Assembly (NCBI RefSeq): GCF_017348835.2
Contig: NZ_CP071375.1
Reading direction: 5' to 3' (one strand)
DNA: 64,000 nucleotides
Origin: Escherichia coli
GTDB taxonomy: Bacteria > Pseudomonadota > Gammaproteobacteria > Enterobacterales > Enterobacteriaceae
The first letter of the stretch is position 1; each line of letters opens with the position of its first letter. Positions 59,001 through 64,000 of the stretch are shown piece after piece. A program made the position numbers.

Positions 59001-62000
59001 GTGCTTTAGGTGAATGTTTTCACCAGGTTAACATGACGGTGCATTCTTCAAGGCATATATGGTTGATAGTATCTTCAGTAGCTCGCATAAGTATTGAGAT
59101 GTTTTACGCCAGTTACGAATATATTGCATATTTTATTCTCTGTAAGATTTCTTATTAGCACTTAGCCATTTCTAGTTAAAAGGATTAATTATGAGTTTTG
59201 CAGCTACAGATTATCCATCCGGCGCACTAACTGGATCGGGTACACATAACGTGACTTTGAGCGGCAGCGCAGTTCCTGATGGAATGTTACTGTTTGCAAG
59301 CTTAGGGGGTACAGAAACAGTAGGGGAACTATTTACTTATTCTATTAAATTAAAAACTCCTGACATCCTGAACCTGGGCTATGTTTCCCCTGCCGCAAAC
59401 CTGCAGCTCAAACCGATGGTGGGCAAAGATCTGTGCGTCCATATCGAACTGGATGGCGGCGGAAAACGTTATATCAGCGGGCTGGTGACGGCGGCACGCG
59501 TGGCTGGTCATCAAGGACGTTCGGTGGTGTATGAACTGCGGCTCGAACCGTGGTTAAAAATACTGACCCACACTAGTGACTACAAAGCGTTTCAGAATAA
59601 AAACGTGGTGGACATCCTGGATGAGGTACTGGATGAGTATCCCTGGCCAGTGGAAAAACGGCTGGTGGAAAATTATCCGACTCGCGCCTGGCAGGTGCAG
59701 TACGGTGAAACAGATTTCGCTTTTATTCAGCGCCTGATGCAGGAGTGGGGTATCTACTGGTGGTTTGAGCACAGCGAGAACAGTCACACGTTAGTGCTGG
59801 CTGATGCCATTAATGTCCACAAGGCATGCGCAGATTCGCCGCTGGTGTGTTATTACCAGAAAGGGCTGAAACTGGACAAGGAGTTTATCCATACCATCAC
59901 AGCAAATGAAAGTCTGCGCAGCGGACAGTGGGTGCTGAATGATTTCGACTTTATGAAGCCGCGTTCACTGCTGAAGAGCACCGTGGCTAATCCGCGTGAA
60001 ACCGGCCTTGCTGAATATGAGCACTACGAATGGCCGGGAGATTACTTCACAAAGAGTGAAGGTGAAATGCTGACACGCATTCGCATGGAAGAACAGCGTA
60101 GCCCCGGTAGTCGGGTACAGGGCAGCGGCAATATTCGTACCCTGATGACAGGTTTTTCCTTCACCCTGGAAAACTATCCGACAGCCGAAGTGAACCGGGA
60201 ATATCTGCTGGTACAGACCACGCTATTTATACAGGACAATGCGCAACACAGCGGCCAGGAGCAGCATTTCTCTTACTCAACCAGTTTTGAACTGCATCCC
60301 ACCAGCGAAGTTTACCGCCCACAACGAACCCTGAGTAAACCCCACACTAAAGGCCCGCAGAGCGCCATCGTCACCGGCCCGGCAGGGCAGGAAATCTGGA
60401 CAGATAAATATGGCCGGGTGAAAGTTCAGTTTGGCTGGGATCGTTACGGTAAGAATGACGAAAACAGCTCCTGCTGGGTCCGTGTCAGTTATCCGTGGGC
60501 GGGTAAAGGATTCGGTGGCATTCAGATCCCGCGCATTGGTCAGGAAGTACTGGTGGATTTCAAAAACGGTGATCCGGATTTACCGATAATCGTTGGGCGT
60601 ACCTACAACCAGGACACCATGCCACCGTGGGGACTACCGGGCGCAGCGACGCAAAGCGGGTTTTACAGCCATACTATCGGCGGCGGCCCAACCAATGCCA
60701 ACGCACTACGTTTTGAGGATAAACCTGGCGGTGAAGAGGTCTGGCTACATGCCGAAAAAGATCAGCGGATTGAAGTAAATAATAATGAAAGCCACTGGGT
60801 GGGCAATAATCGCCTTAAAGTCATTGATAAAACAGAAACAGCGATAATTGGTGAGGAACGTTCTCTTACAGTTCAGATGGATGATACCTCCCTTGCCGGA
60901 CAAAATAAAACGATTCAGGCCGTACAGAATTTACGCCTTGCTGCGGGAGATTCCATAATTCTTAGTTGTGGGAAAACTATCCTGCAAATGACCAGTGACG
61001 GAATATTTAATATAACCTGTAAGAATTTTAATATTACTGCAACAGAAAATGGAAAGATAAATACACAATCAGGTCAGCTTGATTTAAATATGAATGACAG
61101 GGCTGCAGATATACTTCCGCCTGGAGCATCGGAAAAAACAGCCCTTCAGTTGGCGATAGACGTCGCCTTCATGACTAAAAAATAAATAAAAACCATCATT
61201 AAATAATTTATTAATTAAAAAGGACTCATATCATTATGACGGAGTATTATCTCAATGAAACTGTTGTAACTTTTCCCGGGAATATTATTCAGGACAGCAC
61301 TATTAATATGCTGCGCCTCAGCGATCCCGACGCTGCACTCATTATCAGTCGGGGCCAGATGCAGGAAGGAGACGAATTAGCCTCCCAGATTGAACAGCAA
61401 ATGAAAAAACTGGAGAAACAGGTAAAGGATCTTCACTACACGCCCGTTCAGGTAACACGGGTAGGGATTAATGACGGTGAACAAGGGCTGGAAATACAGA
61501 GCCAGTTTCTCAGGGGTAACGAGCAGGTGTACCAGTGTCAGGTGGCATTTGTGTTGCCGGGTGAGCGAGTCATGATGGCCTTCACCTACGCCAGAACCAC
61601 ACCGCTGACCCCGGCAGATATGACGCGCTGGGCTGAAATTAAAAAGAATCTGCGCTTCAGGATGCGGCAGGAAGCCAGGACGAATTAATCATACAGGGAA
61701 CGGGACATGGAAGAGGCATTCTGGGCGGCAAGACAGGGTGATGCCCTGCTGCATACGTCGTTTATGGCAGATGTGCTGGGGGCGGTGCTGGAGGTGGCCG
61801 CAAATGTCGTTATTGATGCCCTCATTGTCGGCACAACCTCGTTACTGGCGACGTCAGTGGGGATCACGATGGGGTGCACGGCCGTCGTGCTGACCGGTTT
61901 TGTGGCGGGTGTGGCGATGGTGTACACCGGCGTGACAGAAAAGGTCAGCGAAGCCTGTTCAGCCCTCGCAAATATGCTTTTCCCGCCTCAGATTGAAGGT

Positions 62001-64000
62001 TACATCCTCACCGGCTCTGGTGACACATGGATCAACAGCAAACCTGCCGCGCGGGCAGCGGCTACTGCGGCATCGCGGCAGGACATTGAGGCGCAGGACG
62101 CGCAGGCGAAGGCGGAACAGGAAGAAGCGCAGCGTCAGGAGGATGCCAGAACGTTCCGGGATGTGGCCGGGGAATATCTGGAAATGGCGGGGGCCATAGC
62201 CCTGGCGGTTAACCCGGTGACAGGGCCTGTGCTGATGTCCCGGGCGCTGCACGACCAGCTCAGCACGGAAGAAGGGCGTTCTGAAATGGTGGATGGCGTG
62301 ACACATTTTGTGTCGGAACTATGGCAGCCCACTGTGGCCAGTGCGGCCCCGGGCTCCACCCCGACCCCTGACGATAAAATCGACTGCCATAAACATCCTT
62401 CCTCACTGACGCAGTTTCTCGCACAAAAAAAAGCCGCCTTTCTGGATGCCCCCCTGGGAACGGCCCTTAACCTGCTGAGTCCGGACGGTATGCTGGAAAC
62501 CGCCTTTCAGGGAGTGAATGCGGTTATTGGCAGCATCAGTAATCTGTTCAAAGGCGATGACGAGCCGCCCGCAGCGGAATATATCGCGGAAGGCGCGCGG
62601 GATGTGCGTATCAACAGCCAGCCGGCGGCACGCAGCGGGGCACGCTGTACCTGCGAGGCCAGGGTGGTGAATGAGCCGGGGAACGGGGCGTTTGTGTCAC
62701 CGGATGTGCGCATTGGCGGTCCGTTACTGGTGGCCAGGGATATCAGAAGCGGCAGGTCGCAGATAACCCTGGTGGCAACCGTGGCGCTGATGTTTCTTCG
62801 CCCGGGCAAAATGCTTTCTAAAATCGCCTGTTTTGCTGCCAGTGTCGGGATGAGCATGCTGACGCAGAAGGCCACCAGTGCCCTTCCGCATCCGGTCAAT
62901 GCCGCCACCGGGGCCAAATACCTGGCCGATGACGATGACTTCGATTTCAGTCTGCCGGGCCACTTTCCGCTGGACTGGCAGCGCGTGTACAGCAGTCGTG
63001 ACGAACGCACGGAAGGAATGTTTGGTCAGGGCTGGAGTGTGATGTATGAAGTCAGCCTCGTGCGCACACCGGGTATCGGTTGTTGCAGGAGGGTGATGAT
63101 TGGGTGTTGCAGTTTAATCATCATCAGCATTGGCAGTCGATGTACCGTTTTGATCTCTGCGAGCAGCAACAAAGCGATTATGTGATGGGCAATTTCTGGT
63201 CGGCGCACTGGCCGCAGTCGCATTTTCGCCATCATTTGCTGATGTGCCGCCATTTGCCGGACGGCGGCAAGCTGACACTGACCAATTTTCATTTTACCCA
63301 TTATGAAAATGGGCACGCGGTGGAGCAGCGAAATCTACCGGATGTGGCGTCGTTATATGCTGTGATGCAAGAACAGTTTAGTCTGGGCGTGGACGATGCG
63401 AAACATGGCTTTACCGTGGATGAGTTGGCGCTGGTGATGGCGGCGTTTGATACGCACCCGGAGGCGGGAAAATAATTTATGTCAGGTTGCCGGATGCGGC
63501 GTAAACGCCTTATCCGGCATACATTAGCCCGGTTGTAGACCTGACAGGCGAAGCGCATCAGACAACGGTTTCAGAGTTCAATTGCCCATTCGGCATGAAA
63601 CAAAATCACCGCCGCGCCAGAAATGGTGACTTTTTCCGGTTGGTTATCACGAATTGTCACCGTCACTTCAATCACGCCGTCACGCCCCAATGCGCGCCCC
63701 TGATGGCCTTTAACACGCAGCACCTTGCCATCGTGGGGCAATACGTTGTGATGTACCAACCATGCACCCATCGGGCCATTGGCATTGCCAGTCACCGGAT
63801 CTTCCACAATACCAATCGCAGGCGAGAACATGCGACCATCGGTTTCGTTTTTGCCTGGGCGGATCTGGAACGGGAAGAAACCATTGCAGCCAATCTGTTT
63901 GCTGATAGCGCTCAGCGCAGCAAGATCAGGCGAAAGGGCGTCGATATCCACTTCTGGTTTCAACGGGATCATCACTTTTGAGTGTCCTGTTGTTGCCACC

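Follow-up and report, generated by a model that had tools for sequence, protein, structure and literature searches.

A probable decayed vgrG island of the aspV T6SS at the rhsE site of Escherichia coli

The window analysed here is a stretch of 64,000 nucleotides of Escherichia coli DNA (assembly GCF_017348835.2, contig NZ_CP071375.1). Statements about the whole genome were read from strain PE164, from which the window differs by 2 bases in 50 kb and of which its source may be a sister isolate. Past ansP, homology to K-12 MG1655 in a local BLAST comparison ends at 57286, and the left boundary of an island lies at about 57287, at the chromosomal position that rhsE occupies in K-12. A first-pass annotation had described a vgrG-eag-prePAAR-rhs locus at 59191-63065; the open reading frames were found exactly where it put them, but the island starts further upstream. 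The features are as follows.

57287..58086, no strand: AT-rich non-coding leader at the left end of the island (31-39% GC; composition profile and BLAST against K-12 MG1655)
58087..58617, + strand: Tpe-like cargo effector of 176 aa, homologous to the C-terminal Zn-metallopeptidase domain of VgrG2b; HEMMH motif intact
58614..58970, + strand: Tpi-like immunity lipoprotein, 118 aa; lipobox LSGC; 4-nt overlap with the effector stop codon
59191..61185, + strand: vgrG (tssI), 664 aa, intact, without a C-terminal effector domain (Pfam, TIGR03361)
61236..61688, + strand: Eag-family (DcrB/DUF1795) chaperone gene, 150 aa, intact (Pfam DcrB PF08786, 3.9e-19)
61707..63074, + strand: native 5' part (codons 1-456 of about 1550) of a class I prePAAR rhs gene (profiles; as far as 63075 the DNA is 99% identical to full-length loci)
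63073..63075, no strand: probable deletion junction, GTA common to rhs and nhoA, a 3-bp microhomology (rhs and nhoA of GF3-3 in a three-way alignment; BLAST end points)
63075..63185, + strand: 36 non-native codons and a stop at the end of the chimeric ORF; out-of-frame nhoA DNA, hydrophobic and Cys-rich (translation, hydropathy)
63076..63475, + strand: nhoA 3' remnant, last 400 nt, C-terminal 132 aa (PGAP in PE164: 'arylamine N-acetyltransferase, missing N-terminus'; alignments to GF3-3, OZ197100 and K-12 nhoA)

In relatives that carry the intact module it comprises a Tpe-like metallopeptidase with a lipoprotein immunity protein, VgrG, Eag, a class I prePAAR Rhs toxin of about 1550 aa and an Rhs immunity protein. 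The first four products (Tpe, Tpi, VgrG and Eag) are all full length in the window, with 0-2 substitutions relative to close relatives. The island was counted in 187 genomes. An Rfam scan of 57000-64000 gave no family at the gathering score, and a consensus scan for promoters and terminators was uninformative (promoter-like sites: 18 found, 11.2 expected; terminator-like sites: 1 found, 5.4 expected).

The identity of the 176-aa protein came solely from a search of PDB sequences, in which 6h56 was matched with an E value of 1.8e-20 and IHEMmHVWQ was aligned to IHEMtHVWQ; Pfam and NCBIfam yielded no significant match for this protein. Its length is the same as in relatives, from which it differs by 1-4 substitutions, and it is 43% identical to an ORF upstream of vgrG in Sci-1 of EAEC 042. 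The small ORF that follows scored 33.8 bits against NCBIfam NF045617 ('putative T6SS immunity periplasmic lipoprotein'), under the cut-off of 43. The HExxH core is the one found in the Tpe/Tpi family (the VgrG2b C-terminal metallopeptidase with PA0261, Tpe1-Tpi1 of A. baylyi, and SARI_02727/02726 of S. arizonae). The likeness extends to the adjoining vgrG and to the small lipobox ORF downstream, as described for Enterobacteriaceae, whose members of the family have lipoprotein immunity proteins (Wood et al. 2019, PMC6899460). Unlike VgrG2b, in which the domain is fused to VgrG, the present protein is a stand-alone 176-aa cargo of predicted activity. Positions 58087-58970 apparently hold an intact effector of the VgrG2b-C metallopeptidase type with a putative lipoprotein immunity partner, upstream of vgrG. 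The pair was absent from the first-pass annotation.

The 664-aa VgrG has the gp27-like hub, OB-fold and gp5 beta-helix domains expected of VgrG/TssI (Phage_GPD 7e-98, Phage_base_V 5e-13 and Gp5_trimer_C 2e-25 in Pfam) and scored 557.9 bits against TIGR03361, whose cut-off is 186. As vgrG is itself the core gene tssI, the earlier statement that the window lacks T6SS core genes holds for the other twelve only. The protein is 76% identical to VgrG of the PapRG-06-5 aspV cluster and 84% identical to the aspV remnant in PE164, compared to 24-34% for the VgrGs of other E. coli T6SSs. This identity of 76-84% to aspV VgrGs makes the aspV T6SS the likely firing apparatus for the island.

The next gene stops 18 nt ahead of the rhs start, directly upstream of the prePAAR effector gene. 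Its product, identical in GF3-3 and OZ197100, was recognized by the Pfam model that corresponds to DUF1795 and also matched the SciW structures 6xrb/6xrr (E about 7e-4). By family and by placement the ORF at 61236-61688 is an Eag gene, as first proposed, and its product is the predicted chaperone of the effector TMD. Eag binds TMD1 and postPAAR, and prePAAR-PAAR is enough for VgrG binding (PMC8636562).

The rhs reading frame runs from 61707 to 63185 and has 492 codons, 456 of Rhs and 36 non-native. The prePAAR motif, defined as AARxxDxxxH (PMC7773334), is represented by AARQGDALLH at residues 7-16, and the Pfam prePAAR_I model matched weakly (E 0.86). A single hydrophobic block was seen at residues 18-77 on the Kyte-Doolittle scale and corresponds to the TMD region N-terminal to PAAR. 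PAAR itself is split, with a weak Pfam match at residues 97-119 (E 1.6) and a second at residues 291-321 (2e-5), and is followed by a postPAAR region and the DUF6531 plug (residues 395-452, 2.9e-17). The best solved relative was Rhs1 of Photorhabdus (7q97, E 1.8e-53). Beyond the plug, little of an Rhs protein is left: the NF041261 RHS_core model was covered at positions 34-104 of 1261 only, and the 456 native residues reach only the DUF6531 plug region and contain no YD dipeptide. A full-length relative has 21 YD dipeptides, none of them in its first 456 residues, as well as PLSWIDPLGL at residue 1428 and a 113-aa toxin. By the dipeptide count and by comparison with this relative, the ORF has no YD shell, PxxxxDPxGL motif or C-terminal toxin. 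On its 3' side the nhoA remnant and then yddE were found, with no cognate immunity gene; in relatives this place is taken by Imm8 or a 146-aa ORF.

Most of what the first-pass annotation had said of this gene was borne out. The gene order vgrG-eag-prePAAR-rhs agrees with profile, structure-sequence and comparative evidence; the prePAAR motif, TM helices and split PAAR are there; and profile search returned PAAR and Rhs homology, whose absence would have overturned the reading. The truncation put at about 450 codons falls after exactly 456, and the reported loss of core, toxin domain and immunity gene agrees with the profiles and the full-length relatives. Alignment to full-length E. coli rhs loci gave the 99% DNA identity listed above and set the end of homology at 63075, close to the proposed 63060. 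Only the 'first Rhs repeats' had to be given up, as the retained residues contain no YD repeat.

The gene order, the AARxxDxxxH motif, the one TMD region N-terminal to PAAR and the postPAAR/DUF6531 plug are shared with the vgrG-eagR-rhs islands of Salmonella (SciW-Rhs1), P. protegens (EagR1-RhsA) and Photorhabdus (EagR-Rhs1, 7q97). In contrast to these islands, the present rhs has 456 of about 1550 codons and lacks YD shell, PxxxxDPxGL, toxin and immunity gene, and an insert of about 170 residues divides its PAAR. The rhsE locus of K-12 (the rhsE pseudogene b1456, with ydcD) lies at the same site, between ansP and pptA-yddH-nhoA, and its rhs is decayed too. However, K-12 kept a 3' rhs fragment and ydcD and has no vgrG, eag or rhs 5' end, whereas the present strain kept the 5' end and lost the 3' end, and the two rhs lineages have almost no DNA similarity.

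Homology to nhoA begins at 63073-63076 (three-way alignment and BLAST), and between ansP and yddE the genes pptA and yddH are missing. The missing DNA amounts to 5,941 bp relative to OZ197100 and 12,305 bp relative to GF3-3, and comprises the remainder of rhs, the immunity gene, symE, pptA, yddH and the 5' end of nhoA. Because relatives differ in this segment, the size of the deletion is given as a range, 5.9 to 12.3 kb. The proposed event is an illegitimate-recombination deletion with 3-bp microhomology that would have brought the last 400 nt of nhoA directly behind codon 456 of rhs. Lost with it would have been the Rhs shell, its toxin and the immunity gene, along with symE, pptA, yddH and the 5' half of nhoA, and the result would be a 492-codon chimeric ORF with 36 junk residues at its end; possibly more than one event was involved. 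An IS- or repeat-mediated deletion was also considered and was rejected, since the joint has just the 3-bp microhomology and no IS remnant or repeat. With only its 3' part left, fused to rhs by the deletion, nhoA has likewise become a pseudogene. The last 132 codons are all that was found of NhoA, which is about 281 aa at full length and has its catalytic half at the N-terminus; in the NAT family it is the N-terminal part that bears the catalytic Cys-His-Asp triad. RefSeq already labels both halves of the fusion as pseudogenes. A REP element lies between nhoA and yddE.

It might be argued that the rhs-nhoA fusion was collapsed or mis-joined in assembly and that the true rhs is full length, since the repeats in rhs genes invite mis-assembly and the many frameshifted genes in the PE164 annotation indicate imperfect base-level quality. 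Frameshift-type errors, however, do not make a fusion that spans several kb, and the partner at the joint is not another rhs copy but the unique housekeeping gene nhoA, met at a clean microhomology and with pptA and yddH missing beside it. A search of 5426 complete E. coli genomes with the 240-nt junction returned two, PE164 and F2_81, both pig strains and deposited separately, at 100% identity. The occurrence of the junction in both makes an assembly error unlikely, and we give this explanation almost no weight; the same result disposes of the idea that correcting a local error would restore a full-length rhs frame.

The state of the aspV T6SS was judged against PapRG-06-5, in which the cluster is intact; OZ197100 and XJ34 were set aside as references because theirs are disrupted by an insertion (IS1/resistance island) or by deletions. 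The PapRG-06-5 cluster carries tae4/tai4, tagJ/tagK and its own vgrG-eag-rhs. Its VgrG is close to that of the island, but BLASTP gave no match for the island Eag, and the Rhs N-terminus is 32% identical over the PAAR-plug region. At the PE164 aspV locus only tssA, tssG, tssF, an internal vgrG fragment and rhs pieces are left, with a gap of 23,138 bp relative to PapRG-06-5; the lost genes include tssB/C, hcp, clpV and tssJ-M. F2_81 shares this deletion as well as the junction. In megablast searches with a REP-free anchor, eight probes drawn from four E. coli T6SS types matched nothing further in PE164 or F2_81, against 4 and 5 places in control genomes; such searches reach sequences of about 80% identity or more, and a divergent T6SS elsewhere would escape them. 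The metV site of PE164 is empty of a T6SS island, and plasmid pPE164 carries no T6SS gene. A complete tssA-M core set was thus found neither at aspV nor at metV, nor on the plasmid, nor with the probes for the four cluster types. The description of the locus as an orphan therefore stands: a search of the rest of the genome by probes for T6SS core genes returned the gutted aspV cluster alone.

The PE164 aspV locus contains orphan C-terminal fragments of rhs, accompanied by immunity genes (imm11, AHH). They could be taken to mean that the 3' end of the island rhs, with its toxin and immunity gene, was moved elsewhere by Rhs C-terminal displacement or recombination and is still usable. Yet these fragments belong to the rhs array of the aspV cluster, are also found in relatives with an intact island and have no N-termini, and a joint to nhoA with loss of unrelated flanking genes is the mark of a simple deletion rather than of rhs-rhs recombination. 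Such a displacement is hardly credible.

The 492-aa product would keep prePAAR, TMD, PAAR and postPAAR, the parts that are sufficient elsewhere for Eag and VgrG binding, and would have no toxin. With Eag it might form a toxin-less VgrG tip that delivers Tpe through a divergent T6SS beyond the reach of the probes. All elements sufficient for binding are kept, Tpe, Tpi, VgrG and Eag are intact, and natural prePAAR-TMD-PAAR ORFs separate from an Rhs ORF exist (Ahmad et al., PMC7773334). However, the probes for the four T6SS types detected neither sheath genes nor those for Hcp, ClpV, TssK or TssM in PE164 or F2_81, the cognate aspV cluster is gutted, and the 36-residue hydrophobic tail may destabilise the product. 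There is also no sign of selection for the truncated allele, because only the two genomes carry it. We regard a working tip as very unlikely, if a little less so than an assembly error or a displacement. In a weaker form of this reading, the island would be kept for the protection that Tpi gives against relatives armed with a T6SS.

We favor simple decay instead. With the genes for sheath, Hcp tube, ClpV and membrane complex lost and no other T6SS detected, the locus could not act as a weapon. Judged from sequence comparison, it is very probable, for the account as a whole, that the segment 57287-63075 at the rhsE site represents an auxiliary module ('vgrG island') of the E. coli aspV T6SS in a state of decay, that it was truncated by the deletion into nhoA, and that the host genome has no functional cognate T6SS. 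The island is an ordinary relic. A literature search on strain PE164 and T6SS found nothing.

The main value of the finding is correct annotation, and there is little beyond that. Inactivation of nhoA and removal of pptA and yddH are possibly relevant to studies of arylamine metabolism in this pig-associated lineage. The locus is an example of E. coli lineages shedding T6SS weaponry stepwise: the main cluster and the Rhs toxin with its immunity gene are gone, and VgrG, the chaperone and a second effector-immunity pair are left. Having lost the Rhs immunity gene, the strain should be sensitive to that toxin when it is delivered by relatives. The retained Tpi may still guard against Tpe; this defensive immunity would be the only likely residual function of the island.

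An island at 57287-63075 carries a Tpe-like/Tpi-like gene pair, vgrG, eag and the 5' part of an rhs gene, which a deletion has joined to a remnant of nhoA. Homology to K-12 stops at 57286, and the island therefore begins well before vgrG. The vgrG, eag and rhs frames lie exactly where the first-pass annotation had placed them; two overlapping ORFs between the island start and vgrG fell outside its coordinates.

Genes of the island (window positions)
58087-58617, Tpe-like metallopeptidase gene, 176 aa, matching 6h56
58614-58970, Tpi-like lipoprotein gene, 118 aa, product starting MKRFFLFFFLSGC, lipobox within
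59191-61185, vgrG, 664 aa, canonical VgrG (Pfam Phage_GPD 7e-98, Phage_base_V 5e-13, Gp5_trimer_C 2e-25)
61236-61688, eag, 150 aa, DcrB family (PF08786, 3.9e-19)
From 61707, rhs ORF, opening with MEEAFWAARQGDALLH, which fits the prePAAR motif AARxxDxxxH

The identity of vgrG was borne out by its Pfam domains and by TIGR03361 (557.9 bits, cut-off 186). The proposed DUF1795/Eag chaperone was confirmed as well, PF08786 (DcrB) being the family that the first-pass annotation called DUF1795, and the protein is similar to SciW, the Eag chaperone of Salmonella (6xrb/6xrr, E about 7e-4). The N-terminus of the rhs product has the prePAAR motif of Ahmad et al. 2020 (PMC7773334), as had been claimed, together with a single hydrophobic block at residues 18-77. 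Its PAAR is indeed split, with a weak Pfam match at residues 97-119 and a second (2e-5) at 291-321, and DUF6531 occupies residues 395-452 (2.9e-17). Among solved structures, Photorhabdus Rhs1 (7q97, E 1.8e-53) comes closest; the alignment stops near Rhs1 residue 301, still in the N-terminal plug, which lies ahead of the beta-barrel shell. Islands of the vgrG-eag-rhs type that encode class I prePAAR effectors have been described with this same architecture.

Neither Pfam nor NCBIfam gave a significant match to the 176-aa protein, which RefSeq names 'type IV secretion protein Rhs' or 'hypothetical'. At sequence level it matched 6h56, the crystallised effector domain of P. aeruginosa VgrG2b, with an E value of 1.8e-20, and the catalytic HExxH is aligned (IHEMMHVWQ in the window, IHEMTHVWQ in VgrG2b). 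The 118-aa protein scored 33.8 bits against the NCBIfam model 'putative T6SS immunity periplasmic lipoprotein', under the cut-off of 43. The C-terminal domain of VgrG2b is a periplasm-acting metallopeptidase toxin with an immunity protein encoded by the small ORF downstream; toxins of this type also occur as stand-alone cargo, and Enterobacteriaceae homologs of the immunity protein are lipoproteins (Wood et al. 2019, PMC6899460). Judged by sequence similarity, 58087-58970 apparently encodes an intact stand-alone metallopeptidase of the VgrG2b C-terminal type, with an overlapping lipoprotein gene. Similarly, the Sci-1 cluster of EAEC 042 has a 43%-identical ORF and a lipoprotein gene directly upstream of vgrG, and these look like a candidate effector-immunity pair; in the retrieved segment of NC_017626.1 (6995-8097) the ORF is of 188 aa and is followed by a 'putative T6SS immunity periplasmic lipoprotein'.

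At least 80% of 57200-64000 is present in 187 of 5426 complete E. coli genomes, and in all but 2 of these the homology to the window ends at 63075-63078 and is followed by full-length rhs. Rhs sequence had been said to be lost near 63060; alignment to these full-length loci upheld the truncation and moved its end to 63075. In a three-way alignment with GF3-3, a relative carrying the island, the rhs parent reads ...CACACCGGGTA and then, past the joint, GCGCAG, the nhoA parent reads ...GGAGAGTA and then TCGGTTG, and the window reads ...CACACCGGGTATCGGTTG. Both parents share the GTA that stands at 63073-63075, and the window from 63076 on is the last 400 nt of nhoA. Because no IS element or longer repeat is present at the joint, we read it as an illegitimate-recombination deletion. 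Native Rhs comprises codons 1-456, followed by 36 out-of-frame nhoA codons and a stop at 63185, and the same deletion cut nhoA to its C-terminal 132 codons (63076-63475).

Relative to isolate OZ197100, 5,941 bp are missing, an interval that holds the remainder of a 1550-aa Rhs, a 146-aa putative immunity gene, symE, pptA, yddH and the 5' end of nhoA; pptA and yddH, both present in K-12 and relatives, are absent from the window. The loss of the Rhs core, C-terminal toxin and immunity gene is thus as first described, all lying in the deleted segment. Relative to GF3-3 the missing DNA amounts to 12,305 bp, with orphan rhs-CT/immunity cassettes, an ISAs1 remnant, a GGDEF gene and a sulfatase gene as extra content. 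In the Rhs of OZ197100 there are 21 YD dipeptides; PLSWIDPLGL stands at residue 1428, and the C-terminal toxin is 113 aa long. Since none of the 21 falls in its first 456 residues, what the window retains is the delivery module plus the beginning of the plug; the "first Rhs repeats" of the first-pass annotation are not there, the native residues ending within the plug.

That the rhs-nhoA fusion arose in assembly is very improbable. A 240-nt query over the joint was covered in full at 100% identity in exactly 2 genomes, the pig strains PE164 and F2_81, and an artefact would have had to recur in two separate assemblies. Furthermore, the joint links rhs to a unique housekeeping gene, whereas repeat collapse yields other errors. 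The truncation therefore stands as a real deletion, and RefSeq describes its two halves as 'DUF6531 domain-containing protein, missing C-terminus' and 'arylamine N-acetyltransferase, missing N-terminus'. Since the Tpe-like and Tpi-like proteins, VgrG and Eag retain their full length and differ from those of close relatives by 0-2 substitutions, the rhs deletion appears to be recent, and it is the only lesion in the island.

K-12 rhsE occupies the same chromosomal site but belongs to a different rhs lineage and shows the opposite decay, a 3' fragment and ydcD being kept and the 5' end lost. The two loci are unrelated apart from 124 nt of the island's AT-rich leader (57717-57838), 76% identical to K-12 between yncH and the rhsE pseudogene; this segment could be either an upstream element that has been conserved or a remnant. 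EHEC rhsE has likewise been described downstream of a vgrG (PMC7216683). At the island locus GF3-3 has a frameshifted rhs and A34 an rhs broken into three ORFs; independent decay at this site is common.

The window covers the paaZ-yddE part of an E. coli chromosome. Over 57200-64000 it matches PE164 (NZ_CP114128.1) at 100% identity and F2_81 almost perfectly; across the whole window PE164 shows 2 mismatches in the first 50 kb and 0 in 51200-64000. Given this near identity, the PE164 record served as stand-in for the source genome. In its annotation paaC carries a frameshift and paaK an internal stop (window 2296-3041 and 9256-10569), reflecting either decay of the phenylacetate pathway or base-level assembly errors; the pPE164 plasmid record has many frameshift calls too, and carries espT and an EspF-repeat fragment. 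Between ydcL and ydcO there is an IS200/IS605 element (34314-36021; tnpA with an internal stop, insQ/TnpB-family gene intact). The small toxin systems hicAB, hokB and ortT, placed in the window by the PE164 annotation (40442-41080, 23078-23227, 48545-48718), are unrelated to the rhs finding. The ETT2 type III secretion island (PE164 896000-914000) is degraded, with sctC split by IS1 and sctN and a yscQ-family gene frameshifted.

The cognate T6SS apparatus has been lost. VgrG from the window shares 76% identity with its counterpart in the PapRG-06-5 aspV T6SS cluster and 84% with a VgrG fragment at PE164 aspV, compared to only 24-34% for the three VgrGs of EAEC 042. The intact PapRG-06-5 cluster comprises tssA-G-F-E, tagJ/K, clpV, tssB/C, tae4/tai4, hcp, tssJ/K/L/M, tagF and its own vgrG-eag-rhs. 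At PE164 aspV (3968000-3984000) only tssA, tssG and tssF are left, then an internal vgrG fragment and rhs pieces; a 23,138-bp alignment gap spans tssE through tssM, and a second deletion removed the vgrG 3' end, eag and the rhs 5' end. The locus also contains symE and orphan rhs-CT/immunity cassettes (AHH/imm11). F2_81 aspV has the same structure, and the cluster is disrupted in OZ197100 and XJ34 too. The metV site of PE164 is empty, and plasmid pPE164 has no T6SS gene. For genome-wide probing, a REP-free 771-nt anchor over the rhs-nhoA joint, which puts PE164 and F2_81 at the top of the output, was fused to 700-nt probes and places were counted per record. In PE164 and F2_81 none of the eight probes (Sci-1 hcp/tssH and tssF; aai tssC; 042 T6SS-2 tssC and tssK; PapRG-type tssC, tssM and tssH) hit any place other than that of the anchor (megablast, about >=80% identity; four known cluster types), while the controls 042 and PapRG-06-5 gave 4 and 5 places. 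The locus is an orphan, as had been proposed.

The prePAAR, TMD, PAAR and postPAAR regions are sufficient for Eag and VgrG binding (Rhs1/EagR work, PMC8636562), and the 492-aa product, which lacks the toxin and ends in a hydrophobic junk tail, should keep all of them. Lacking a sheath, tube, ClpV and membrane complex, the strain could presumably fire neither the Rhs remnant nor the intact Tpe-like effector. The earlier observation and its interpretation were both correct and are refined here: the truncated locus is ordinary genome decay, its pseudogenes already flagged in RefSeq, and the island would be a relic. Its one plausible remaining benefit would be Tpi-mediated immunity against Tpe-armed relatives; with the Rhs immunity gene gone, the strain should be sensitive to that Rhs toxin.
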